A stretch of DNA of 64,000 nucleotides from Escherichia coli (lineage in GTDB: Bacteria > Pseudomonadota > Gammaproteobacteria > Enterobacterales > Enterobacteriaceae), in the NCBI RefSeq assembly GCF_009931435.1, contig NZ_CP043414.1. One strand, written 5' to 3'. The position numbers and the translations under genes were made by a program. The notes beneath the pieces were generated by a model. It worked only from the letters and a program-made list of their open reading frames with translations. It was not told the origin of the DNA and searched no databases. This document shows positions 6,481 to 39,808 of this stretch, one piece after another. Within the stretch, counting starts at the first letter, position 1, and each line of letters starts with the position of its first letter.

Positions 6481-7170
6481 TTACTCACTTTCTGCCGGTA
6501 ATACTGGCATCCAGTCAATCGGTTTCTCGCCACGTTGTTCCAGCCACTGATTTGCCAGCACAAAATGGTTGCAGCCAAAGAACCCACGATGCGCCGAAAG
6601 CGGTGATGGATGCGGCGCTTTCAGTATGTGATGGCGTTGTTTATCAATAATCGCCCCTTTCTTCTGTGCATGTGATCCCCACAACAAAAACACCACGCCT
6701 TCGCGATGCTGGTTGATCAGGCTGATGACTTTATCGGTGAAGGTCTCCCAGCCGAGGCTAGCGTGGGAATGCGCCTGACCTGCGCGAACCGTCAACACAG
6801 TATTGAGTAGCAGAACGCCCTGACGCGCCCAGCTTTCAAGATAACCATGATTAGGGCGGGTGAAACCGGGAATAGTATTTTCCAGCTCTTTATACATATT
6901 CAGCAGTGACGGCGGTGTCGCAATGCCGGGGCGAACGGAAAATGCCAGACCATGCGCCTGTCCCGGTCCGTGATAAGGATCCTGGCCGAGAATCACCACT
7001 TTAACGTCACCCAACTCTGTAAAGCGGAACGCGTTAAAGACATCCTTTTGTGGCGGATAGATAGTGACGCCGGCCTGCCGCTCGCTGGCGACGGTCTGTA
7101 GGGTATTAAGAAAATAGGGTTGCTGCTTCTCTTCAGCCAGCACGTCATGCCAGGTTAATTCGTTTGCCAT
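6481..7170 (-). CDS. ung: Uracil-DNA glycosylase
   Basis: 229 aa; [18 protein letters not shown] and [14 protein letters not shown] motifs. Confidence 0.95.
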
Positions 7171-7300: not shown

Positions 7301-7314
7301 TTGATGTAAAACAA
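7301..7314 (+). promoter_or_regulatory. Distal FNR/CRP-family half-site pair (TTGATgtaaAACAA) upstream of grcA
   Basis: Partial match to TTGAT-N4-ATCAA, centred 53 bp upstream of the perfect site at 7354-7367. Confidence 0.45.
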
Positions 7315-7353: not shown

Positions 7354-7367
7354 TTGATTTAAATCAA
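7354..7367 (+). promoter_or_regulatory. FNR binding site, perfect TTGAT-N4-ATCAA, grcA promoter
   Basis: Sequence TTGATTTAAATCAA about 108 bp upstream of grcA ATG. Confidence 0.65.
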
Positions 7368-7474
7368 AGAATCAAGGGTGTTTGAGGAGTATATATACAC
7401 TCAAGCAACAATGGTTTTACCAATTGGCCGCGACAGGCTAATCAAATCAAATAATTTTGCCGGGGAGGCATCAC

Positions 7475-7858
7475 ATGATTACAGGTATCCAGATTACTAA
7501 AGCTGCTAATGACGATCTGCTGAACTCTTTCTGGCTGCTGGACAGCGAAAAAGGCGAAGCGCGTTGCATCGTTGCGAAAGCAGGTTTTGCAGAAGACGAA
7601 GTGGTTGCAGTAAGCAAACTGGGTGACATTGAATACCGTGAAGTTCCAGTAGAAGTTAAACCAGAAGTTCGCGTTGAAGGTGGTCAGCACCTGAACGTAA
7701 ACGTTCTGCGTCGTGAAACTCTGGAAGATGCAGTTAAGCATCCGGAAAAATATCCGCAGCTGACCATCCGTGTATCCGGTTATGCAGTTCGCTTTAACTC
7801 TCTGACTCCGGAACAGCAGCGCGATGTTATCGCTCGTACCTTTACTGAAAGCCTGTAA
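7475..7858 (+). CDS. grcA: Autonomous glycyl radical cofactor (spare part for pyruvate formate-lyase)
   Basis: ORF track 133 aa; start at ATG 7475 ([13 protein letters not shown], 127 aa); C-terminal glycyl-radical motif RVSGYAVRF. Confidence 0.95.
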
Positions 7859-9693: not shown

Positions 9694-11028
9694 TCACTCT
9701 TCTGTCGTTTGCGGTGGTACGCCTGTTCCGCTTGGTTTGCGTCGCTTACCAATATTTTTGGTATCGCGATGGCGTTTTTTCACCCGTGGCTTCTCTTTCT
9801 CTTTAGCCTTTTTCTTCTCGGCGCGTTTTGCCAGTACTTTCTTCGATGGCTTGCCGGTCTGCTTTTCGCTTGGCGCACGCGTTTTCGGGCGTAACTCATC
9901 AATAACGCGAGCTTTAATTGGCTCTTCAATATAGCGGCCTACTTTGCCCAGCAGCAGATGGTCATGAGCTTCAACCAGTGAAATCGCGGTTCCCTTACGA
10001 CCAGCGCGAGCAGTACGTCCGATACGGTGTAAATAAGTATCGCCACTGCGTGGCATATCGAAGTTAAAGACATGGCTGACATCCGGAATGTCGATACCGC
10101 GCGCGGCAACATCGGTGGCAACCAGTACGTTTACGCGACCTTCGGTCAGACGCTTGATCGCTTCGTTACGCTTGCCTTGTACCATCTCACCTTCGAGATA
10201 GCAGTTGTTGATGCCCGCTTCGCGCAACCAGTTTGCCAGTTCATGCACACGCTCACGCTTACGCACAAATACAATTGAGCGGGTCGCTTCCGGTTGTTTT
10301 AACAGATGCACCAGTAATGCGGTTTTATGTTCCAGGTCATCGGCGCGGTAATACCACTGATGAATTTTTTTGCGCTCACGGGTGGATGGATTCGCAGAAA
10401 CTTCCACCGGATCTTCAAGCAGACGCTCGGCAAAATCCTGAATGGCATCGCCTTCAAGCGTTGCCGAGAAGAGCAGGGTCTGTTTACGCCAGCGCGTTTC
10501 GCCCGCAATATGTTCGATATCCTGAGCAAAACCCATATCCAGCATTCGGTCTGCTTCGTCGAGGATCAGCGTTTCAACCGCGCGGCAATCGAAGTTCTCT
10601 TCTTTTATGTATTGCAGCAGACGTCCGGTCGTGGCAACCACGATATCCTGGTTTTCGCTGAATACTTCCGCGTGGTTCATATAGGCTACGCCGCCGGTGA
10701 TGGTGGCGATATCCAGATGCGTATGTTTCGCCAGTTCGCGGGCATGATCGGCCACCTGCATTGCCAGTTCTCGAGTCGGGGTGAGGATCAAAATACGCGG
10801 CGGACCGGATTTCTTTCGGGGGAAATCGAGCAGGTGCTGCAACGCTGGCAGCAGATACGCCGCCGTTTTACCGGTGCCTGTCGGCGCAGAACCGAGTACA
10901 TCACGGCCATCGAGCGCAGGCGGAATGGCGGCAGCCTGAATGGCGGTCGGGCGAGTGAAACCTTTATCCTGGAGGGCTTCCAGCAGGCTTTCGTCGAGTT
11001 CAAGTTCGGAAAAAGTCGTTACAGTCAT
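9694..11028 (-). CDS. srmB: ATP-dependent DEAD-box RNA helicase
   Basis: 444 aa; Q-motif, [10 protein letters not shown] Walker [19 protein letters not shown] box, lysine-rich C-terminal tail. Confidence 0.95.
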
Positions 11029-11159
11029 GTTCTACCTCTGTGTGGGGCGCTGATTATAGACGTTACGGCTGCAATCTTCATCTGTTTGTATGGATATCGC
11101 TTCTCGGGTATTGTTCTCACCCGGTGCTATCGCCGTTTTTCCTGCAAGGTTTTATTTTC

Positions 11160-13513
<2,354 letters not shown>

Positions 13514-13792
13514 TTAATTTACTAAACATGGTTTGGTCAGCATAGCATCATGTTGTGCAATTAAACACCTGCTATTTTAATTTTTGTTACAGAGGCTAAA
13601 CAGACCGAATCACGGCGACGAGAAAACGAGAAGTTACTGGCTGGCGAAGGATTAGGTGGTGAAATAAAAAGGCCGTTGGGTTACTCTTCAGGCAGTTAAA
13701 TGGGCATTTCTACACAGATAATGCGATGTTCAGATTCTGTAGACTTATAATGATAGATAATAATCCGTCTACAGCATGACAAACAAAAACAG

Positions 13793-13915
13793 ATGCGTTA
13801 CGGAACTTTACAAAAACGAGACACTCTAACCCTTTGCTTGCTCAAATTGCAGCTAATGGAGTGGCGTTTCGATAGCGCGTGGAAATTTGGTTTGGGGAGA
13901 CTTTACCTCGGATGA
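13793..13915 (+). CDS. rseD: rpoE leader peptide / upstream ORF, stop overlaps rpoE start (ATGA)
   Basis: Frame +1 relative to rpoE reads MRYGTLQKRDTLTLCLLKLQLMEWRFDSAWKFGLGRLYLG*; TGA at 13913-13915 overlaps rpoE ATG 13912-13914; true start uncertain (upstream in-frame extension lacks an ATG; internal ATG at 13856). Confidence 0.45.
   Translation: MRYGTLQKRDTLTLCLLKLQLMEWRFDSAWKFGLGRLYLG
13802..13829 (+). promoter_or_regulatory. SigmaE-type promoter (-35 GGAACTT, 16-bp spacer, -10 TCTAA) upstream of rpoE
   Basis: Match to the sigmaE consensus GGAACTT-N16-TCTRA; position fits the autoregulated rpoE promoter. Confidence 0.6.
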
Positions 13916-14487
13916 GCGAGCAGTTAACGGACCAGGTCCTGGTTGAACGGGTCCAGAAGGGAGATCAGAAATCCTTTAACTTACTGGTAGTGCGCTATCA
14001 GCATAAAGTGGCGAGTCTGGTTTCCCGCTATGTGCCGTCGGGTGATGTTCCCGATGTGGTACAAGAAGCTTTTATTAAAGCCTATCGTGCGCTGGATTCG
14101 TTCCGGGGAGATAGCGCTTTTTATACATGGCTGTATCGGATTGCTGTAAATACAGCGAAAAATTACCTGGTTGCTCAGGGACGCCGTCCACCTTCCAGTG
14201 ATGTGGATGCCATTGAAGCTGAAAACTTCGAAAGTGGCGGCGCGTTGAAAGAAATTTCGAACCCTGAGAACTTAATGTTGTCAGAAGAACTGAGACAGAT
14301 AGTTTTCCGAACTATTGAGTCCCTCCCGGAAGATTTACGCATGGCAATAACCTTGCGGGAGCTGGATGGCCTGAGCTATGAAGAGATAGCCGCTATCATG
14401 GATTGTCCGGTAGGTACGGTGCGTTCACGTATCTTCCGAGCGAGGGAAGCTATTGATAACAAAGTTCAACCGCTTATCAGGCGTTGA
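13912..14487 (+). CDS. rpoE: ECF sigma factor sigmaE (sigma-24)
   Basis: ORF track starts at GTG 13879; conserved N-terminus MSEQLTDQVLVERVQKGD starts at ATG 13912 (191 aa); sigma-70 region 2 and 4. Confidence 0.95.
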   Translation: MSEQLTDQVLVERVQKGDQKSFNLLVVRYQHKVASLVSRYVPSGDVPDVVQEAFIKAYRALDSFRGDSAFYTWLYRIAVNTAKNYLVAQGRRPPSSDVDAIEAENFESGGALKEISNPENLMLSEELRQIVFRTIESLPEDLRMAITLRELDGLSYEEIAAIMDCPVGTVRSRIFRAREAIDNKVQPLIRR

Positions 14488-14519
14488 CGATAGCGGGATA
14501 CTGGATAAGGGTATTAGGC

Positions 14520-15170
14520 ATGCAGAAAGAACAACTTTCCGCTTTAATGGATGGCGAAACGCTGGATAGTGAGCTGCTTAACGAACTGGCTCATAACCCA
14601 GAAATGCAGAAAACCTGGGAAAGCTATCACTTAATCCGTGACTCAATGCGGGGTGATACTCCCGAGGTGCTCCATTTCGATATCTCTTCACGCATAATGG
14701 CCGCCATTGAAGAAGAGCCAGTACGTCAACCGGCGACACTGATCCCAGAGGCCCAGCCTGCGCCGCATCAATGGCAGAAAATGCCATTCTGGCAGAAAGT
14801 ACGTCCATGGGCGGCACAGCTTACCCAAATGGGCGTAGCAGCATGCGTATCGCTTGCAGTTATCGTTGGCGTCCAGCACTATAATGGGCAATCTGAAACG
14901 TCCCAGCAGCCCGAAACGCCAGTATTTAATACACTGCCGATGATGGGTAAAGCCAGCCCGGTTAGCCTGGGAGTACCTTCTGAAGCGACTGCAAACAATG
15001 GTCAACAGCAGCAGGTACAGGAGCAGCGTCGTCGCATTAATGCAATGTTGCAGGATTACGAACTGCAACGTCGACTCCACTCTGAACAGCTTCAGTTTGA
15101 GCAGGCCCAAACACAGCAAGCCGCTGTACAGGTGCCAGGAATTCAAACTTTAGGAACGCAATCGCAGTAA
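14520..15170 (+). CDS. rseA: Anti-sigmaE factor, single-pass inner membrane protein
   Basis: Start at ATG 14520 (MQKEQLSALMDGETLD, 216 aa); central TM segment; Q-rich C-terminus. Confidence 0.93.
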   Translation: MQKEQLSALMDGETLDSELLNELAHNPEMQKTWESYHLIRDSMRGDTPEVLHFDISSRIMAAIEEEPVRQPATLIPEAQPAPHQWQKMPFWQKVRPWAAQLTQMGVAACVSLAVIVGVQHYNGQSETSQQPETPVFNTLPMMGKASPVSLGVPSEATANNGQQQQVQEQRRRINAMLQDYELQRRLHSEQLQFEQAQTQQAAVQVPGIQTLGTQSQ

Positions 15171-16126
15171 TGAAGCAACTTTGGTTTGCCATGTCATTAG
15201 TGACAGGTAGCCTGTTATTCTCTGCTAACGCCTCGGCCACTCCCGCGTCCGGGGCGTTATTACAGCAGATGAACCTGGCCAGTCAGTCACTGAATTACGA
15301 GCTGTCATTCATCAGCATCAATAAACAGGGTGTTGAGTCTCTGCGTTATCGACATGCACGCCTCGATAACCGTCCTCTTGCACAATTGTTGCAAATGGAT
15401 GGCCCGCGCCGGGAAGTGGTACAGCGCGGCAATGAAATCAGCTACTTTGAACCGGGCCTTGAACCGTTCACGCTTAATGGCGATTACATTGTTGATTCTC
15501 TGCCATCGCTCATCTATACCGATTTCAAACGCCTTTCTCCTTACTACGACTTTATCTCCGTGGGACGCACGCGTATTGCTGATCGTCTTTGCGAAGTCAT
15601 TCGCGTGGTGGCCCGTGATGGCACACGCTACAGCTACATCGTGTGGATGGACACCGAATCGAAATTACCGATGCGGGTTGATCTCCTTGATCGCGATGGT
15701 GAAACGCTGGAACAATTTCGCGTGATTGCTTTTAACGTTAATCAGGATATCAGCAGCAGTATGCAGACGCTGGCGAAAGCAAATCTGCCGCCGCTGCTTT
15801 CTGTTCCTGTAGGTGAAAAAGCTAAATTCAGCTGGACGCCAACCTGGTTGCCACAGGGGTTTAGTGAGGTTTCCAGCAGCCGACGTCCGTTACCGACGAT
15901 GGACAACATGCCTATCGAATCACGTCTCTATTCCGACGGATTATTCAGCTTCTCGGTAAACGTTAACCGCGCTACGCCATCGAGCACCGATCAGATGTTG
16001 CGTACCGGACGCAGAACCGTCAGTACAAGCGTACGTGATAACGCCGAAATCACCATTGTCGGCGAACTGCCGCCGCAAACGGCGAAACGCATTGCCGAGA
16101 ATATTAAGTTCGGGGCAGCGCAATGA
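15170..16126 (+). CDS. rseB: Periplasmic regulator of sigmaE, binds RseA
   Basis: 318 aa with signal peptide; start overlaps rseA stop (TAATG). Confidence 0.93.
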   Translation: MKQLWFAMSLVTGSLLFSANASATPASGALLQQMNLASQSLNYELSFISINKQGVESLRYRHARLDNRPLAQLLQMDGPRREVVQRGNEISYFEPGLEPFTLNGDYIVDSLPSLIYTDFKRLSPYYDFISVGRTRIADRLCEVIRVVARDGTRYSYIVWMDTESKLPMRVDLLDRDGETLEQFRVIAFNVNQDISSSMQTLAKANLPPLLSVPVGEKAKFSWTPTWLPQGFSEVSSSRRPLPTMDNMPIESRLYSDGLFSFSVNVNRATPSSTDQMLRTGRRTVSTSVRDNAEITIVGELPPQTAKRIAENIKFGAAQ

Positions 16127-16602
16127 TCAAAGAGTGGGCTACGGTCGTCTCCTGGCAAAACGGGCAGGCGCTGGTCAGTTGTGATGTTAAAGCCTCATGC
16201 AGCAGCTGTGCTTCCCGTGTCGGTTGCGGTAGCCGCGTGCTGAATAAACTTGGCCCACAAACCACGCATACCATTGTCGTACCCTGTGATGAACCGTTAG
16301 TGCCGGGGCAAAAAGTGGAATTAGGAATCACCGAAGGCAGCCTGCTTAGCTCCGCATTACTGGTTTATATGTCGCCGTTGGTGGGATTATTCCTCATCGC
16401 TTCGTTATTTCAGCTACTCTTTGCTTCAGATCTTGCAGCATTATGCGGTGCGATTCTCGGCGGCGTTGGTGGATTCCTGATTGCACGCGGCTACTCGCGA
16501 AAGTTTGCTGCCCGGGCGGAATGGCAACCGATCATCTTAAGCGTGGCATTGCCGCCAGGCCTTGTGCGATTTGAAACATCTTCGGAAGACGCGAGCCAGT
16601 GA
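16123..16602 (+). CDS. rseC: SoxR-reducing system / sigmaE regulatory membrane protein
   Basis: 159 aa; 4-nt overlap with rseB; cysteine cluster CDVKASCSSCASRVGCG then TM helices. Confidence 0.9.
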   Translation: MIKEWATVVSWQNGQALVSCDVKASCSSCASRVGCGSRVLNKLGPQTTHTIVVPCDEPLVPGQKVELGITEGSLLSSALLVYMSPLVGLFLIASLFQLLFASDLAALCGAILGGVGGFLIARGYSRKFAARAEWQPIILSVALPPGLVRFETSSEDASQ

Positions 16603-16799
16603 TTTCACTGGCTTTGTTGCATTTTGCATAACAAATGCGAGGACGTTTCCAGATACCACAATCCATACGGTATGAACATTTCCTCGCCTCAATGTTGTAG
16701 TGTAGAATGCGGCGTTTCTATTAATACAGACGTTAAGCTCAGAACAGCGACTTCTAAAAGCCTGGTTAACCGGGCATTAAGGCACAATAATCATACTTT

Positions 16800-18599
<1,800 letters not shown>

Positions 18600-18614
18600 C
18601 CCTTAGGAGTTGGC

Positions 18615-19589
18615 ATGGCGAATATGTTTGCCCTCATTCTGGTGATTGCCACACTGGTGACGGGCATTTTATGGTGCGTGGATAAATTCTTTTTCGCACC
18701 TAAGCGACGGGAACGTCAGGCAGCGGCTCAAGCGGCTGCTGGTGACTCACTGGATAAAGCAACGCTGAAAAAAGTTGCGCCGAAGCCTGGCTGGCTGGAA
18801 ACCGGGGCTTCTGTTTTTCCGGTACTGGCTATTGTATTGATTGTGCGTTCGTTTATTTATGAACCGTTCCAGATCCCGTCAGGTTCGATGATGCCGACTC
18901 TGTTAATCGGTGACTTTATTCTGGTAGAAAAGTTTGCTTACGGCATTAAAGATCCTATCTACCAGAAAACGCTGATCGAAACCGGTCATCCGAAACGTGG
19001 CGATATCGTGGTCTTTAAATACCCGGAAGATCCAAAGCTTGATTACATCAAGCGTGCGGTGGGTTTACCGGGCGATAAAGTCACTTACGATCCGGTTTCA
19101 AAAGAGCTGACGATTCAGCCGGGATGCAGTTCCGGTCAGGCGTGTGAAAACGCGCTGCCGGTCACCTACTCAAACGTGGAACCGAGCGATTTCGTTCAGA
19201 CCTTCTCGCGCCGTAATGGTGGGGAAGCAACCAGCGGATTCTTTGAAGTGCCGAAAAACGAAACCAAAGAAAATGGAATTCGTCTTTCCGAGCGTAAAGA
19301 GACTCTGGGTGATGTGACGCACCGTATTCTGACAGTGCCGATTGCGCAGGATCAGGTGGGGATGTATTACCAGCAGCCAGGGCAACAACTGGCAACCTGG
19401 ATTGTTCCACCGGGCCAATACTTCATGATGGGTGACAACCGTGACAACAGCGCGGACAGCCGTTACTGGGGCTTTGTGCCGGAAGCGAATTTGGTAGGTC
19501 GGGCAACGGCTATCTGGATGAGTTTCGATAAGCAAGAAGGCGAATGGCCGACTGGTGTGCGCTTAAGTCGTATTGGCGGCATCCATTAA
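18615..19589 (+). CDS. lepB: Signal peptidase I
   Basis: 324 aa; catalytic SGSMMPTL and GDNRDNSADSRYWGFVP boxes; 15 bp after lepA. Confidence 0.96.
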   Translation: MANMFALILVIATLVTGILWCVDKFFFAPKRRERQAAAQAAAGDSLDKATLKKVAPKPGWLETGASVFPVLAIVLIVRSFIYEPFQIPSGSMMPTLLIGDFILVEKFAYGIKDPIYQKTLIETGHPKRGDIVVFKYPEDPKLDYIKRAVGLPGDKVTYDPVSKELTIQPGCSSGQACENALPVTYSNVEPSDFVQTFSRRNGGEATSGFFEVPKNETKENGIRLSERKETLGDVTHRILTVPIAQDQVGMYYQQPGQQLATWIVPPGQYFMMGDNRDNSADSRYWGFVPEANLVGRATAIWMSFDKQEGEWPTGVRLSRIGGIH

Positions 19590-19734
19590 TAGCTTATCTT
19601 CGTTCACGTTGTCGCCGTTATGGCGACAACGTGAATTATTTATGAGATAAATCCCCCGTGGCTAACGACATCCCCCGTCGTTGTGTATAGAATATTCCCC
19701 CGAAGTTTAAGGTTGGCACCTCCAGGTTGCCACG

Positions 19735-19828
19735 GCACACGAAACAGCGTTGGTCCCCATATACCGGTAAACTGAAACTGCAGCGAAGCAGTTAGCAGAG
19801 CCATGTATATCAGGTCTGTTTCGTGTGC
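19735..19828 (+). promoter_or_regulatory. rnc 5' leader long-range stem-loop (candidate RNase III autoregulatory site)
   Basis: Perfect 13-nt inverted repeat GCACACGAAACAG (19735-19747) / CTGTTTCGTGTGC (19816-19828) enclosing smaller stems, ending 34 nt upstream of rnc ATG. Confidence 0.5.
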
Positions 19829-19831
19829 TGA

Positions 19832-21444
<1,613 letters not shown>

Positions 21445-21446
21445 TT

Positions 21447-21575
21447 AGCATACTCTATGACTTTCGAGGTGCAGGAAGGCGGCAAGACCGTGAATCCCTG
21501 GGAGCTTACTAAAGTAAGTGACCAGGGTGAACGGGTGCAGCCAAGGCACCTGCAACTTGAAAGGCGACGAGTATG
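21447..21575. repeat. ERIC (IRU) enterobacterial repetitive intergenic consensus element
   Basis: ~129-bp imperfect palindrome; core GTGAATCCCTGGGAGCTTACTAAAGTAAGTGACCAGGGTGAACG matches the ERIC1R/ERIC2 primer region; fills the whole era-recO spacer. Confidence 0.7.
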
Positions 21576-22304
21576 ATGGAAGGCTGGCAGCGCGCATTCG
21601 TATTGCATAGTCGCCCGTGGAGCGAAACCAGCCTGATGCTGGACGTCTTCACGGAGGAATCGGGTCGCGTGCGTCTGGTTGCCAAAGGCGCACGCTCTAA
21701 ACGCTCTACTCTGAAAGGTGCATTACAGCCCTTCACTCCTCTCTTGCTACGTTTTGGCGGGCGTGGCGAAGTCAAAACGCTGCGCAGTGCTGAAGCTGTC
21801 TCGCTGGCGCTGCCATTAAGCGGTATCACCCTTTACAGTGGTTTGTACATTAACGAACTTCTCTCCCGCGTGCTGGAATACGAGACGCGCTTCTCTGAAC
21901 TCTTTTTCGATTACTTGCACTGCATTCAGTCTCTTGCAGGTGCCACTGGTACGCCAGAACCCGCGCTGCGCCGCTTTGAACTGGCACTGCTCGGGCATCT
22001 GGGCTATGGCGTCAATTTTACCCATTGTGCGGGTAGCGGCGAGCCGGTAGATGACACCATGACGTATCGTTATCGCGAAGAAAAAGGGTTTATCGCAAGT
22101 GTCGTTATCGATAATAAAACGTTCACCGGAAGGCAGTTAAAAGCGTTAAACGCGCGGGAATTTCCTGACGCAGACACACTGCGCGCCGCGAAACGCTTTA
22201 CCCGCATGGCGCTAAAGCCGTATCTTGGCGGTAAACCATTAAAGAGCAGGGAACTGTTCCGGCAGTTTATGCCTAAGCGAACGGTGAAAACACATTATGA
22301 ATGA
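21576..22304 (+). CDS. recO: DNA repair protein RecO
   Basis: 242 aa from ATG 21576 ([20 protein letters not shown]); ORF track starts one codon earlier. Confidence 0.9.
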
Positions 22305-22315
22305 TGAGGATTGTC

Positions 22316-23047
22316 ATGGCTGAATTACTGTTAGGCGTCAACATTGACCATATTGCAACGCTGCGTAACGCACGTGGTACTGCTTACCCGGATCCGGTGC
22401 AGGCGGCGTTTATTGCTGAGCAGGCGGGGGCGGATGGCATTACCGTGCATCTACGTGAAGATCGTCGCCACATTACCGACCGCGACGTGCGCATCCTGCG
22501 TCAGACGCTGGATACCCGCATGAATCTGGAGATGGCGGTGACCGAAGAGATGCTGGCGATCGCCGTTGAAATAAAGCCGCATTTTTGCTGCCTGGTACCT
22601 GAAAAGCGCCAGGAAGTCACAACCGAAGGTGGCCTGGACGTCGCAGGGCAGCGTGACAAAATGCGCGATGCCTGTAAACGTCTGGCGGATGCCGGGATTC
22701 AGGTTTCTCTGTTTATCGACGCCGATGAAGAGCAGATCAAAGCCGCGGCAGAGGTTGGCGCACCGTTTATTGAGATCCACACCGGTTGCTATGCCGATGC
22801 CAAAACTGACGCCGAACAGGCGCAAGAGCTGGCGCGCATTACGAAAGCCGCGACCTTTGCGGCAAGCCTCGGTCTGAAAGTTAACGCCGGACACGGTCTG
22901 ACCTATCACAACGTGAAAGCCATTGCCGCCATTCCTGAGATGCACGAACTGAATATCGGTCATGCCATTATTGGTCGTGCAGTGATGACCGGACTGAAAG
23001 ATGCGGTGGCAGAAATGAAGCGTTTGATGCTGGAAGCGCGTGGCTAA
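22316..23047 (+). CDS. pdxJ: Pyridoxine 5'-phosphate synthase
   Basis: Start at ATG 22316 ([21 protein letters not shown], 243 aa); TIM-barrel PdxJ signature. Confidence 0.93.
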
Positions 23048-23427
23048 TGGCAATATTAGGTTTAGGCACGGATATCGTGGAGATCGCTCGCATAGAAGCG
23101 GTGATCGCCCGATCCGGTGAGCGCCTGGCACGTCGCGTATTAAGCGATAACGAATGGGAAATCTGGAAAACGCACCACCAGCCGGTGCGTTTTCTGGCGA
23201 AACGCTTTGCCGTAAAAGAAGCCGCAGCAAAAGCGTTTGGCACCGGGATCCGCAATGGTCTGGCGTTTAATCAGTTTGAAGTATTTAACGATGAGCTTGG
23301 TAAGCCACGGCTGCGACTGTGGGGCGAGGCATTAAAACTGGCGGAAAAGCTCGGCGTTGTAAATATGCATGTAACGCTGGCAGATGAGCGCCACTATGCT
23401 TGTGCCACGGTAATTATCGAAAGTTAA
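23047..23427 (+). CDS. acpS: Holo-[acyl-carrier-protein] synthase
   Basis: 126 aa; [18 protein letters not shown]-terminus; start overlaps pdxJ stop. Confidence 0.95.
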
Positions 23428-23452
23428 AATAATATCGTTCTCTTTAAAAAGT

Positions 23453-23490
23453 AAAACCCCCGAACTGGTAAGGAACGGGGGTTTTACTTT
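23453..23490 (+). terminator. Intrinsic terminator after acpS (palindromic, possibly bidirectional)
   Basis: AAAACCCCCGAACTGGTAAGGAACGGGGGTTTTACTTT: 5-bp G/C stem flanked by A-run and T-run. Confidence 0.65.
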
Positions 23491-23846
23491 ACAACTTTAA
23501 TTTTGTGCAGCACACGATTCCAACAAAAATGATTATGGATCAATTTAGTTATCCTGTACAAGCAACTTGCAATCTTTAGCATAAAAACTCGAGCCTTTAC
23601 GAAGAAATCGATATTGATGAAAAGATTAACGTGACCGCTTTTTGATAAGTACATTAGAATCGGCGTCGTTATTGGATATTTTGCTGTGTTCTACGCCATG
23701 CCACTGAATTCCCCCATTGAAACGAGTGGTGTCGTCAAAGCTCTGGTGTGGAGTGCGGCACTCGATTCCAATAACTCGCACGTTCAGTTTTGGGGAGATG
23801 TAAGGGCTAATCTGAACGGCTGCATTCCTTGTTTAAGGAAAAACGA

Positions 23847-23927
23847 ATGACTGATTGCCGATACCTGATTAAACGGGTCATTAAAGTCGTCATTGCTGTT
23901 TTACAGCTGATCCTTCTGTTCTTGTAA
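23847..23927 (+). CDS. shoB: Type I toxin-antitoxin small hydrophobic toxic peptide (26 aa)
   Basis: ATG 23847 to TAA 23925-23927 encodes MTDCRYLIKRVIKVVIAVLQLILLFL; SD-like AAGGAAAAA upstream; in the acpS-yfhL spacer where shoB/ohsC is known; below the ORF-track size cutoff. Confidence 0.85.
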   Translation: MTDCRYLIKRVIKVVIAVLQLILLFL

Positions 23928-23944
23928 CACCAGGAAACGTACTT

Positions 23945-23985
23945 AAGGCGCGTCAGGTTAACCAGCCAGGCGCGCCTTTAATAAT
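23945..23985 (+). terminator. Candidate terminator hairpin downstream of shoB
   Basis: AAGGCGCG ... CGCGCCTT inverted repeat followed by TTTAATAATT; U-tract weak. Confidence 0.4.
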
Positions 23986-24120
23986 TAGACGTAAGTGTCG
24001 GCGTATATATTATCGGAATTCATTTAATGAATATATTCATTAATGACATCATGGAAATGAATATGTAACTTTCGCTTTTATACGAGCAAATAAGCAATAT
24101 CCTGCTCATAGAGCAAAATA

Positions 24121-28408: not shown

Positions 28409-28424
28409 ACGCAAACGGTTTCGT
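28409..28424 (+). promoter_or_regulatory. PurR operator (PUR box) in purL promoter
   Basis: ACGCAAACGGTTTCGT palindrome 77 bp upstream of purL ATG. Confidence 0.6.
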
Positions 28425-35270: not shown

Positions 35271-36594
35271 ACCTGCGCATTTATTACTGGTCGATGACGA
35301 TCCAGGATTGCTGAAACTGCTTGGTCTGCGTCTGACCAGCGAAGGTTATAGCGTGGTTACGGCGGAAAGTGGAGCTGAAGGATTGCGGATACTGAATCGT
35401 GAAAAAGTAGATTTAGTCATCAGCGACCTGCGGATGGATGAAATGGATGGTATGCAACTGTTTGCTGAAATCCAGAAAGTGCAGCCAGGTATGCCAGTAA
35501 TCATCCTCACCGCGCATGGCTCCATTCCCGATGCGGTTGCCGCGACACAGCAGGGCGTGTTCAGTTTCCTCACCAAGCCCGTCGATAAAGACGCGCTGTA
35601 TCAGGCAATTGATGATGCGCTGGAACAATCCGCGCCAACCACCGACGAACGCTGGCGCGAGGCGATTGTCACCCGCAGCCCGCTGATGCTGCGTTTGCTG
35701 GAACAGGCGAGGCTGGTGGCGCAGTCAGATGTTAGCGTTTTGATTAACGGTCAGAGCGGTACCGGGAAAGAGATTTTTGCCCAGGCGATCCACAACGCCA
35801 GCCCGCGCAACAGCAAGCCGTTTATTGCTATTAACTGTGGCGCATTGCCCGAGCAATTACTGGAGTCCGAGCTGTTTGGTCATGCGCGCGGTGCGTTTAC
35901 TGGCGCTGTCAGCAATCGCGAAGGTTTATTCCAGGCGGCGGAAGGCGGTACGCTGTTTCTCGATGAGATTGGCGACATGCCCGCACCGTTGCAGGTCAAA
36001 CTGCTACGCGTGTTGCAGGAGCGCAAAGTGCGCCCGCTGGGCAGCAACCGCGATATTGATATCGACGTGCGGATTATTTCCGCCACTCACCGTGACCTGC
36101 CAAAGGCGATGGCGCGCGGGGAATTCCGTGAAGATCTCTACTATCGCCTCAACGTTGTCAGTCTGAAAATTCCGGCATTGGCGGAGCGCACAGAAGACAT
36201 TCCGCTACTGGCAAACCACTTATTGCGCCAGGCGGCAGAGCGACATAAACCGTTTGTCCGCGCATTCTCCACCGATGCAATGAAACGCCTGATGACCGCG
36301 AGCTGGCCGGGCAACGTGCGCCAGTTGGTCAACGTGATTGAACAGTGCGTGGCGCTAACATCATCTCCGGTGATTAGTGATGCGTTAGTCGAGCAGGCGC
36401 TGGAGGGCGAAAATACGGCTCTGCCAACCTTTGTTGAGGCGCGTAATCAGTTTGAACTCAACTACTTGCGTAAGCTGCTGCAAATCACCAAAGGTAATGT
36501 CACCCACGCGGCGAGAATGGCGGGGCGCAACCGGACAGAATTTTATAAACTGCTTTCCCGACACGAGCTGGATGCAAACGATTTCAAGGAATGA
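35260..36594 (+). CDS. glrR: Sigma54-dependent response regulator (NtrC family)
   Basis: Start at ATG 35260 ([18 protein letters not shown], 444 aa) overlapping qseG end by 11 nt; receiver domain, AAA+ sigma54-interaction domain ([14 protein letters not shown]), C-terminal HTH. Confidence 0.9.
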
Positions 36595-37036: not shown

Positions 37037-38227
37037 TCACAGCACTTTATGCGGGCCAAAGCATTCGTAATGAATGTTTTCCTGTTTCACACCCAGGTCC
37101 ACTAACTGTTTCGCGGCAAACTGCATGAAGCCAACCGGGCCGCAGAGATAGAACTGCATTGTCGGATCGCTGAACGCACCTTCCAGTTTGCTCAAATCCA
37201 TCAGACCTTCACTATCAAACTGACCTTTAGCGCGATCGGCTTCGCTCGGCTGACGATACCAGGTGTGCGCGGTAAAGCGTGGCAGTGCTTGCCCCAGTTC
37301 CTTAACTTCATCGGCAAAGGCATGAACATCGCCATTTTCTGCCGCATGGAACCAGTTTACCTGAGCGCTATGACCTGCTTTTGCCAGCGTGTCGAGCATT
37401 GCCAGCATTGGTGTTTGACCGACACCGGCAGAGATTAACGTCACCGGCGTGTCATCTGCGATAGCCATAAAGAAATCACCTGCCGGAGCGACCAGTTTCA
37501 CGACATCGCCAACGTTGGCGTGATTGTGTAACCAGTTTGATACCTGCCCACCCTCTTCGCGTTTCACTGCAATACGATAGCCTTTGCCATCCGGTTTGCG
37601 CGTCAAAGAGTACTGACGAATTTCCTGATGTGGGAAACCTTCCGGTTTCAGCCAGACGCCGAGATATTGCCCTGGACGGTATTCCGCCACTGCGCCGCCG
37701 TCCACCGGCTCAAGTTCGAAACTGGTGATAAGCGTGCTGCGCGGTGTTTTAGCTACAATGCGGAAATCGCGAGTACCTTCCCAGCCACCGGCTTTGCTGG
37801 CGTTTTCGTTATAGATTTCCGCCTCGCGATTAATAAATACATTAGCCAGTACGCCATAGGCTTTACCCCACGCGTCCAGTACTTCCTGGCCCGGGCTGAA
37901 CATTTCGTCCAGCGTCGCCAACAGGTGTTCACCGACGATATTGTATTGTTCCGGTTTGATCTGGAAGCTGGTGTGTTTCTGAGCGATTTTTTCTACCGCT
38001 GGTAACAGCGCAGGCAGGTTTTCAATATTGCTGGCGTAGGCGGCAATAGCGTTAAACAGGGCTTCACGTTGATCGCCATTACGCTGGTTACTCATGTTAA
38101 AAATTTCTTTGAGTTCTGGGTTATGAGTAAACATACGGTCGTAGAAATGGGCGGTTAACTTTGGCCCTGTTTCCACCAGTAAAGGGATGGTGGCTTTTAC
38201 TGTAGCGATGGTTTGAGCGTCAAGCAT
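37037..38227 (-). CDS. hmp: Flavohemoglobin (nitric oxide dioxygenase)
   Basis: Start at ATG 38227 ([17 protein letters not shown], 396 aa); N-terminal globin, C-terminal FAD/NAD reductase module. Confidence 0.95.
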
Positions 38228-38244
38228 ATGGTCTTCCTTTTTTT

Positions 38245-38276
38245 GCATCTTAATTGATGTATCTCAAATGCATCTT
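38245..38276. promoter_or_regulatory. NsrR-type operator overlapping the hmp promoter
   Basis: Minus-strand reading AAGATGCATTTGAGATACATCAATTAAGATGC, an AAGATGC-containing imperfect palindrome 18-49 bp upstream of hmp ATG. Confidence 0.55.
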
Positions 38277-38554
38277 ATAAAAAATAGCCCTGCAATGTAA
38301 ATGGTTCTTTGGTGTTTTTCATGAAGAATGTGATGAAGTGAAAAATTTGCATCACAAACCTGAAAAGAAATCCGTTTACGGTTGCAAGCTCTTTATTCTC
38401 CAAAGCCTTGCGCAGACTGAAGGTAATCGTTTGCGTAAATTCCTTTGTCAAGACCTGTTATCGCACAATGATTCGGTTATACTGTTCGCCGTTGTCCAAC
38501 AGGACCGCCTATAAAGGCCGAAAATTTTATTGTTAGCTGAGTCAGGAGATGCGG

Positions 38555-39808
38555 ATGTTAAAGCGTGAAATGAACATTGCCGATTATGATGCCGAACTGT
38601 GGCAGGCTATGGAGCAGGAAAAAGTACGTCAGGAAGAGCACATCGAACTGATCGCCTCCGAAAACTACACTAGCCCGCGCGTAATGCAGGCGCAGGGTTC
38701 TCAGCTGACCAACAAATATGCTGAAGGTTATCCGGGCAAACGCTACTACGGCGGTTGCGAGTATGTTGATATCGTTGAACAACTGGCGATCGATCGCGCG
38801 AAAGAACTGTTCGGCGCTGACTACGCTAACGTCCAGCCGCACTCCGGCTCCCAGGCGAACTTTGCGGTCTACACCGCGCTGCTGGAACCCGGCGACACCG
38901 TTCTGGGTATGAACCTGGCGCATGGCGGTCACCTGACTCACGGTTCTCCGGTTAACTTCTCCGGTAAACTGTACAACATCGTTCCTTACGGTATCGATGC
39001 TACCGGTCATATCGACTACGCCGATCTGGAAAAACAAGCCAAAGAACACAAGCCGAAAATGATCATCGGTGGCTTCTCTGCATATTCCGGCGTGGTTGAC
39101 TGGGCGAAAATGCGTGAAATCGCTGACAGCATCGGTGCTTACCTGTTCGTTGATATGGCGCACGTTGCGGGACTGGTCGCTGCTGGCGTCTACCCGAACC
39201 CGGTTCCTCATGCTCACGTAGTGACTACCACCACTCACAAAACCCTGGCGGGTCCGCGCGGCGGCCTGATCCTGGCGAAAGGCGGTAGCGAAGAACTGTA
39301 CAAAAAACTGAACTCTGCCGTTTTCCCTGGTGGTCAGGGCGGCCCGTTGATGCACGTAATCGCTGGTAAAGCGGTTGCTCTGAAAGAAGCGATGGAGCCT
39401 GAGTTCAAAACTTACCAACAGCAGGTCGCGAAAAACGCTAAAGCGATGGTAGAAGTATTCCTGGAGCGCGGTTACAAAGTGGTTTCCGGCGGTACTGATA
39501 ACCACCTGTTCCTGGTTGATCTGGTTGATAAAAACCTGACCGGTAAAGAAGCTGACGCCGCTCTGGGCCGTGCTAACATCACCGTCAACAAAAACAGCGT
39601 ACCGAACGATCCGAAGAGCCCGTTTGTAACCTCCGGTATTCGCGTGGGTACTCCGGCGATTACACGTCGTGGCTTTAAAGAAGCCGAAGCGAAAGAACTG
39701 GCTGGCTGGATGTGTGACGTGCTGGACAGCATCAATGATGAAGCCGTTATCGAGCGCATCAAAGGTAAAGTTCTCGACATCTGCGCACGTTATCCGGTTT
39801 ACGCATAA
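38555..39808 (+). CDS. glyA: Serine hydroxymethyltransferase
   Basis: Start at ATG 38555 ([22 protein letters not shown], 417 aa); PLP-lysine motif [14 protein letters not shown]. Confidence 0.96.

Follow-up and report, generated by a model that had tools for sequence, protein, structure and literature searches.

The spacer between the divergent genes hmp and glyA raises the question of which regulators act from it and at which bases their sites lie. An earlier note, made by eye on the window (the whole 64-kb stretch of Escherichia coli DNA analysed here), had placed an NsrR-type palindrome next to hmp and expected MetR and PurR sites on the glyA side. Overall, the matrix scans, the identity with published sites and the conservation described below point to the canonical divergent hmp-glyA control region of E. 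coli, with NsrR/FNR, MetR and PurR sites, a reading to which we assign a probability of roughly 95%.

The hmp-glyA spacer and its conservation

The spacer comprises positions 38228–38554 (327 bp), exactly as the earlier note had it, and separates hmp (hmpA; coding sequence 37037..38227, minus strand, ATG at 38227..38225) from glyA (38555..39808, plus strand, ATG at 38555). Translation, NCBIfam and RefSeq identify their products as the NO-inducible flavohaemoglobin Hmp (396 aa; 627 bits against the equivalog model NF009805, cut-off 432) and the serine hydroxymethyltransferase GlyA (417 aa; 678 bits against NF000586, cut-off 335), both scores exceeding the cut-offs of models at equivalog or subfamily level. 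The RefSeq annotation of a 100% identical locus names hmpA and glyA and uses the inner start codons for both. Two outer in-frame starts from the mechanical open reading frame list were rejected, namely the ATG at 38248 for hmp and the ATG at 38549 for glyA; the latter is directly abutted by the Shine-Dalgarno sequence AGGAG (38544–38548), which lies 6 nt from the glyA ATG at 38555. Three small open reading frames within the spacer (58, 58 and 42 aa, with TTG or GTG starts) were likewise set aside as mechanical, as related genera show variation or deletions in the segments that they span.

The glyA side had been described as long and AT-rich, and this description holds: GC content is 40.3% for 38277–38554, 38.8% for the whole spacer and 29.7% on the hmp side, compared to 51.9% for the window, and an AT content as high as that of the spacer is reached by only 0.8% of 327-nt windows. 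A search of the spacer for structured RNA against Rfam returned mir-67 as the sole match, at the noise level (E = 0.33), and folding of the glyA leader relative to shuffled sequences revealed nothing unusual (z = +0.51) and no riboswitch-like element.

Of 5426 complete E. coli genomes, 5425 contain a single copy of a 527-bp query centred on the spacer, and its location between hmpA and glyA is the same in each of them. The E. coli K-12 region (b2552/b2551) has the same 327 bp and the same arrangement, with 321 of 327 bases identical. The six substitutions relative to K-12 MG1655 (38322–38323, 38378, 38413, 38416 and 38520; no indel) all fall in poorly conserved columns outside every regulator site, and there is no difference between the two sequences in the NsrR/FNR operator, either of the MetR boxes, the PurR operator or the promoter hexamers. 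The TG at 38322–38323 (GA in K-12) is rare, the identical 61-mer being present in 8 of 5425 genomes, and belongs to a variable segment that is deleted in Enterobacter and Trabulsiella. Collinearity of the window with the best-matching genome (strain 2020CK-00188) is lost more than about 24 kb from hmp, because that genome carries an extra prophage remnant.

For comparison beyond the species, a DNA-pattern scan of species-representative genomes with a degenerate glyA start yielded 120 loci, mostly from Enterobacterales. In 90 of the 120, hmp lies divergently upstream of glyA across a spacer of mostly about 270–470 bp, giving 91 spacers together with the present one. Conserved blocks were defined on an alignment of 40 distinct Enterobacteriaceae spacers.

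A predicted NsrR operator over the hmp promoter

The NsrR matrix was symmetrised and built from the published 11-1-11 sites of E. coli CFT073 (Mehta 2015, PMC5320621, Table 4), excluding the hmp site itself and one duplicate so that 25 sites were retained, and both strands of the window were scanned against a first-order Markov background. With this leave-one-out matrix, the top match in the 64 kb was 38254–38276 (18.5 bits; runner-up 12.5), with a per-position p value of 8e-7 and about 0.1 such matches expected per window (128,000 positions). The score falls within the 12.2–31.6 bits spanned by the known NsrR sites. This 23-mer (plus strand TTGATGTATCTCAAATGCATCTT, hmp strand AAGATGCATTTGAGATACATCAA) is an 11-1-11 imperfect inverted repeat in which 7 of 11 arm pairs are complementary. 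A half-site matrix identified its promoter-proximal half, AAGATGCATTT (38266–38276), as the best 11-mer of the window (15.6 bits).

The same 23 bases are identical at 23 of 23 positions to the hmp entry in Table 4 of Mehta et al. 2015 (PMC5320621), who reported a ChIP-seq peak for the hmp NsrR site in E. coli CFT073 with its summit 34 bp upstream of the hmp start codon. Transferred to our sequence, this summit maps to about 38261, within 38254–38276. The supplements of Leyn 2014 give regulon membership, with site sequences absent. Within the species, 5095 of 5418 E. coli genomes (94%) share without change a 61-mer that spans the operator and promoter of hmp.

The position of the 23-mer relative to the hmp promoter fits a role in repression. 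The sigma-70 core promoter of hmp (38274..38301, minus strand) consists of a −35 TTTACA (38301..38296), a 16-nt spacer and a −10 TATAAG (38279..38274), and the same TTTACA-16-TATAAG was given for hmp by Shimada et al. 2014. Both hexamers are conserved in the 40 Enterobacteriaceae (plus strand TGTAAA at 38296–38301 and CTTATA at 38274–38279); a consensus promoter scan of the hmp side returned the overlapping TTTACA-18-TAAGAT. A promoter pointing towards glyA, TTGATG-16-TATAAA (38254–38281), is also predicted here. Transcription of hmp would start at about 38264–38267. The 23-mer starts within the −10 TATAAG and runs over this putative start, as would be expected of the site of a repressor that acts by occluding the promoter.

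Conservation across the order gave the same picture. An NsrR match was present in 90 of the 90 other Enterobacterales spacers (15.7–30.4 bits, median 27.0), and in 86 of these it lies no more than 45 nt from the hmp ATG (median 27 nt, typically 25–32 nt). The hmp operators of Enterobacter, Klebsiella, Cedecea, Serratia, Yersinia and Proteus do not differ in their position with respect to the ATG and the −10, and their proximal half is the same. Among the NsrR operators of the E. coli nitric oxide stress response (ytfE, hcp, ygbA and yeaR; PMC5320621), the 23-bp architecture and the overlap with the core promoter are likewise the same, and the proximal half at hmp is identical to the ytfE half-site. 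Given its repeat structure, its identity with a site occupied in vivo, its overlap with the promoter and its conservation, we regard 38254–38276 as a predicted NsrR operator of the E. coli 11-1-11 type.

Alternatively, NsrR might have no part in the palindrome, which would then be either a Fur box or a coincidence in an AT-rich promoter. At 29.7% GC, the hmp side does offer a higher background for A/T-rich motifs, and Fur has been reported as a weak repressor of hmp (PMC2884951). However, the p value given above was derived from a first-order Markov background, with 0.1 matches expected in 128,000 positions, and chance could not account for an NsrR match in each of the 90 other spacers. As to Fur, the closest fit to its box in the spacer carries 8 mismatches in 19 positions, lies elsewhere (38332) and has more than 300 equally good counterparts in the window. 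The matrix, the conservation and the Fur-box scans thus effectively refute this explanation, to which we give next to no credence.

Extent of the operator and a leader copy of the half-site

The earlier note had read the operator as an AAGATGC-containing imperfect palindrome at 38245–38276, 18 bp from the hmp start codon. The window's best NsrR match lies inside this interval, so that the refuting outcome named in the note, a lack of any significant NsrR match there, did not arise; AAGATGC is indeed present, and the identification as an NsrR site is supported by the matrix and by identity with the ChIP-seq-backed site. The interval as a whole is self-complementary at only 12 of 32 positions; the actual repeat is the 23-mer within it, and the operator begins 27 nt, not 18, from the hmp ATG. 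The left boundary at 38245 had been drawn there because a further AAGATGC copy ends at this base. On the hmp strand, AAGATGC occurs twice, at 38276..38270 and 38251..38245, as part of an exact 9-nt direct repeat of TGCATCTTA (38244–38252 and 38269–38277) with 25 nt spacing. The copy in the hmp 5' leader belongs to the 11-mer AAGATGCAAAA (38241..38251, minus strand), a weak NsrR-like sequence that would be the third half-site of the interval.

The exactness of this direct repeat could be taken to mean that the whole 32-bp interval is a single operator with three half-sites, the leader copy recruiting an extra NsrR subunit or dimer. Mehta 2015 (PMC5320621) lists AAGATGCAAAA as a weak PatSer hit under the hmp peak (‘hmp (19)’, score 5.00) and cites NsrR binding to single motifs, and the 61-mer that is identical in 94% of the E. 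coli genomes contains the leader copy. Weighed against this, the 11-mer scored 7.6 bits, which is at chance level, as 0.6 such matches are expected in 327 bp, and its 25-nt spacing is off the helical phase with the main site. Among the 40 aligned Enterobacteriaceae, the copy was found only in E. coli and E. albertii; it is missing in every other genus of the alignment, where the leader stretch varies freely. We therefore consider an operator of three half-sites quite unlikely, and the leader copy at 38241–38251 is probably non-functional.

A putative FNR box within the distal half of the operator

The FNR scan proposed in the earlier note did yield a box, and this box shares its bases with the NsrR site, a point that the note had missed. 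With the plus-strand sequence TTGATGTATCTCAA (TTGAGATACATCAA on the hmp strand), it occupies 38254..38267 in the promoter-distal half of the NsrR operator and matches TTGAT-N4-ATCAA at 9 of 10 positions. By the consensus alone it is not significant, as dyads with at most one mismatch occurred five times in the window compared to 2.2 expected. Two of the four other matches lie 53 nt apart just upstream of an open reading frame that translates to GrcA/YfiD and adjoins ung. The grcA promoter is a standard example of activation by FNR from two sites, and these boxes are a positive control demonstrating that the scan recovers real sites. The box in the operator is presumably centred at about +5.5 of hmp.

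Repression of hmp by FNR is documented (PMC2884951), and Rodionov et al. 2005 found the candidate NsrR site to be conserved and the FNR site to be confined to E. coli and Salmonella. Among our 91 spacers, an FNR match with at most two mismatches at the operator position was found only in Escherichia, Citrobacter and one Klebsiella. The assignment of a putative FNR box is thus based on conservation and the literature rather than on the consensus scan.

The distribution of scores indicates how the two motifs came to overlap. With a matrix for uniform background, the sites of E. coli and E. albertii are near the bottom of the order (17.9 bits), because their distal half, AGATACATCAA, is degenerate. 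In the other Enterobacterales, the hmp operators are mostly near-perfect palindromes such as AAGATGCATTTAAAATGCATCTT, with 25–30 bits and without an FNR box, and it is the departure of AGATACATCAA from AAGATGCATTTAAAATGCATCTT that creates the FNR dyad. Accordingly reshaped, the hmp operator of E. coli reaches 18.5 bits compared to 31.6 for ytfE and ranks in the lower half of the set of known sites. Across the spacers, the mean NsrR score rises from 21.5 bits in those with one FNR mismatch to about 28 bits in those with five or six. The Escherichia and Citrobacter versions thus appear to have traded part of their NsrR match for an FNR half-site.

The low NsrR score of E. coli within the order, together with the 9 of 10 match and the documented repression by FNR, could also suggest that the 23-mer is essentially an FNR operator for oxygen control and that its resemblance to NsrR sites is secondary. 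However, conservation within it peaks in the NsrR-proximal half AAGATGCATTT, outside the FNR box, FNR-like boxes occur in few genera compared to NsrR matches in all 90 spacers, and an NsrR ChIP-seq peak has been published on the site (PMC5320621). The two roles are moreover compatible, and dual use is already part of the reading that we prefer. A mainly FNR-type operator is therefore highly improbable, and we retain 38254–38276 as a predicted NsrR operator with a putative FNR box nested in its distal half.

Predicted PurR and MetR sites on the glyA side

The expected PurR site was recovered unambiguously. The PurR matrix was derived from the ChIP-chip motifs of Cho et al. 2011 (PMC3159470, Table 1) with glyA and purL left out, and the scan of the window gave two outstanding matches, 38421–38436 (plus strand, 21.0 bits) and 28409–28424 (21.7 bits). 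A score of 21.0 bits was reached by none of 6 million random positions. The second match, ACGAAACCGTTTGCGT, lies about 100 nt upstream of the purL start as placed by collinearity with K-12 and is a positive control for the scan. The first, AGGTAATCGTTTGCGT, is identical to the published glyA motif, which lies under a ChIP-chip peak with a log2 value of 2.08 in the presence of adenine (PMC3159470); RegulonDB grades the glyA PurR site as ‘confirmed’ (footprint, site mutation and ChIP). A PurR match of at least 14 bits was present in 88 of the 90 other spacers, about 105–130 nt from the glyA ATG (median 116). Based on its score relative to known operators and its identity with a bound site, 38421–38436 is a predicted operator for PurR (LacI family), a 16-bp dyad of the ACGNAAACGTTTGCNT type situated about 60 bp upstream of the putative glyA start.

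The MetR consensus is weaker, and a dyad scan with it was uninformative in itself (14 matches in the window compared to 14 expected); its sole match in the spacer was the hmp-proximal box A, TGAAAAATTTGCA (38339..38351, plus strand), with one mismatch to TGAA-N5-TTCA. A second box, TGAAAAGAAATCC (box B; 38361..38373, plus strand), has two mismatches and is centred 22 bp from box A, and both boxes lie in conserved blocks. We therefore examined pairs: with the PurR box as the common reference point of the 91 spacers, the best two dyads 21–23 bp apart were recorded in each. In 55 of the 91, the best pair had box B at −60 from the PurR box, and box A kept a fixed offset of −82 in most spacers. Pairs with at most four summed mismatches were found in 63 of 91 spacers compared to 33 of 1820 shuffled controls (1.8%). 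The pair is present in Enterobacteriaceae, Yersinia, Serratia, Pectobacterium, Dickeya, Rahnella and Hafnia and absent from Morganellaceae. By this paired-dyad test, boxes A and B are two candidate boxes for MetR (LysR type), separated by about two helical turns and keeping their register across Enterobacterales, and they provide the MetR sites that the earlier note had expected. The MetR sites of glyA were reportedly footprinted with DNase I by Lorenz and Stauffer in 1995, and boxes A and B would correspond to these footprinted sites.

A secondary source (PMC5002191) states that two MetR sites with the consensus TGAAnnTnnTTCA have been reported between hmp and glyA and that metE has a pair of sites at a spacing of 22 bp. 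The metE-metR region resembles the present one in having two TGAA-N5-TTCA-type boxes 22 bp apart in a divergent spacer, and the sequence TGAATAATTTGCG in the metR-metE spacer of K-12 is similar to box A. In contrast to metE-metR, the boxes here are far upstream of the activated promoter, at about −124 and −146 from the putative glyA start, and are shared with a second, unrelated gene, hmp.

A third MetR-like sequence, TGTAAATGGTTCT (38296–38308), lies over the hmp −35 and has two mismatches, but it was rejected, as likeness to MetR sites was found in only 32 of 68 spacers. Its distance to box A is 43 nt in E. coli and 21 nt in Enterobacter and ranges from 20 to 146 nt across the 68 spacers, and the distinct distances among these spacers displayed no helical phasing (R = 0.04–0.26).

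The glyA promoter, its leader and further conserved blocks

The probable −10 of glyA is TATACT (38478–38483, plus strand), which is near-invariant in the 40 Enterobacteriaceae and would place the transcription start near 38490. The −10 proposed by the promoter scanner, AATGAT (38467–38472), was rejected as it is not conserved. TTGTCA lies 27 nt from the conserved −10 and is therefore unable to serve as the −35; a weak −35 is probably held by the 3' end of the conserved block TTTGTCAAGACCTGTTATC (38444..38462, plus strand), which forms the upstream part of the promoter. The end of the 5' leader, GTTAGCTGAGTCAGGAGATGCGG (38532..38554, plus strand, 23 nt), includes the AGGAG and is invariant in the 40 Enterobacteriaceae; over 119 loci it is about 70–95% conserved.

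These two blocks and a third one, CAAAGCCTTG (38401..38410), are conserved across Enterobacterales and match none of the four motifs scanned (NsrR, FNR, MetR and PurR). The four regulators thus leave part of the constraint on the glyA half unexplained. The three blocks may be extended contacts of the polymerase or the ribosome, or sites of further regulators. It seems to us unlikely on balance that an undescribed regulator of glyA, transcriptional or post-transcriptional, acts through at least one of them in place of such an extended contact.

A model for the control of hmp and glyA

For protein binding, the response to nitric oxide and the exact transcription starts at this locus, the following model draws on the literature and on inference from the positions of the sites. 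The sigma-70 promoter TTTACA-16-TATAAG would drive hmp. As the operator at 38254–38276 starts in the −10 and covers the start, bound [Fe-S]-NsrR should block RNA polymerase, and damage to the NsrR cluster by nitric oxide would release NsrR from the DNA and derepress hmp. NsrR binding and the relief of hmp repression by NO have been reported for K-12, CFT073 and Salmonella (PMC5320621, PMC2884951). FNR, bound to the distal half and centred a few bases downstream of the start, would repress hmp anaerobically, and this repression would also be relieved by NO. The candidate MetR boxes may serve both genes, in homocysteine-dependent activation of glyA and MetR-dependent control of hmp, and the PurR operator would mediate purine-dependent repression of glyA. 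NsrR, FNR and MetR have previously been described as regulators of hmp, with Fur as a weak one (PMC2884951).

Implications

The hmp-glyA spacer is among the best-characterised divergent control regions of E. coli, and most of the sites placed here had been published before; for E. coli K-12 and CFT073 the literature already contains every point of substance. Its value is that of a calibration case. The call made by eye was right in substance, and only the extent, the symmetry and the distance to the start codon needed correction. Leave-one-out matrices recovered the NsrR and PurR operators cleanly, and purL (for PurR) and grcA (for FNR) provided controls within the window, while MetR and FNR, regulators with a weak consensus, could be placed only through conservation. 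The 91 spacers point to an FNR box overlaid on an ancestral NsrR palindrome in Escherichia and Citrobacter, with a loss of NsrR match, a point that Rodionov et al. 2005 had made qualitatively.

Conservation of the hmp-glyA control region

The arrangement of divergent hmp and glyA genes, with an NsrR site next to hmp and a PurR box next to glyA, was found in 90 of the 119 sampled glyA loci (L003-L122), nearly all of which belong to Enterobacterales. Among these loci, spacer length changed chiefly through indels between the hmp -35 element and MetR box A (38339-38351 in the window), and a few far longer spacers carried insertions (Yersinia similis, 723 bp; Y. pestis, 540 bp). Relative to K-12, the spacer of the window has an adjacent double substitution at 38322-38323 (GA to TG), from which the palindrome CATGAAG / TTTTTCATGAAGAA arises. 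The TG variant is rare, as the identical 61-mer was recovered from 8 of 5425 complete E. coli genomes. The change is probably neutral because it falls in a variable segment, which has been deleted in Enterobacter and Trabulsiella.

The spacer of strain 2020CK-00188 (L124; NZ_ABACVG020000001.1, 1207800-1217000) is 100% identical to that of the window. In this strain, yfhH is followed by phage-derived genes (tail fibre assembly, DUF2800, DUF2815, DNA polymerase, VRR-NUC and helicase) that span roughly 13 kb, a rough size gauged from the rnc-to-hmp distance of 30 kb there. The section of the window compared with this region was about 11000-24000. Since ung and grcA lie at a K-12-like distance from hmp, the window lacks the phage-derived region and therefore stems from another strain.

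FNR and PurR boxes elsewhere in the window

The FNR consensus scan placed two plus-strand boxes at 7301-7314 and 7354-7367, at a spacing of 53 nt; one is a perfect match (TTGATTTAAATCAA), and the other departs from the consensus at one position. The pair is flanked by ung (6481-7170, minus strand) and by the GrcA/YfiD ORF identified by translation (7457-7858, plus strand), a layout that we take to resemble the yfiD promoter with its two known FNR sites.

A strong PurR operator, ACGAAACCGTTTGCGT, lies on the minus strand at 28409-28424 and scored 21.7 bits with a matrix built without the purL and glyA sites. It matches the published purL motif at every base, the purL start as placed by K-12 collinearity lies about 100 nt downstream, and the operator served as the positive control for the PurR matrix. 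The PurR-like box TTGAAATCGTTTGCAT (36572-36587, minus strand; 12.9 bits, about three expected per window) precedes the glnB start (36655) by roughly 70 nt and falls within the glrR ORF, at its 3' end. Given that glnB is among the published targets of PurR and was reported missing by the ChIP-chip study (PMC3159470), this box may be the glnB operator.

The glyA side and a predicted promoter over the NsrR operator

Enterobacterales-wide conservation on the glyA side marked CAAAGCCTTG (38401-38410), TTTGTCAAGACCTGTTATC (38444-38462) and the invariant 23 nt preceding the glyA ATG (38532-38554), and none of these blocks matched the NsrR, FNR, MetR or PurR motifs. RNA structure in the glyA leader was unremarkable, and no Rfam family matched the leader. 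A glyA-direction promoter, TTGATG-16-TATAAA (38254-38281, plus strand), is listed as predicted for the spacer (Shimada et al. 2014); its position, some 270 nt upstream of glyA, coincides with the NsrR/FNR operator, and it stands back-to-back with the hmp promoter. If this predicted promoter is active, glyA would be transcribed with a long, NsrR-controlled leader.
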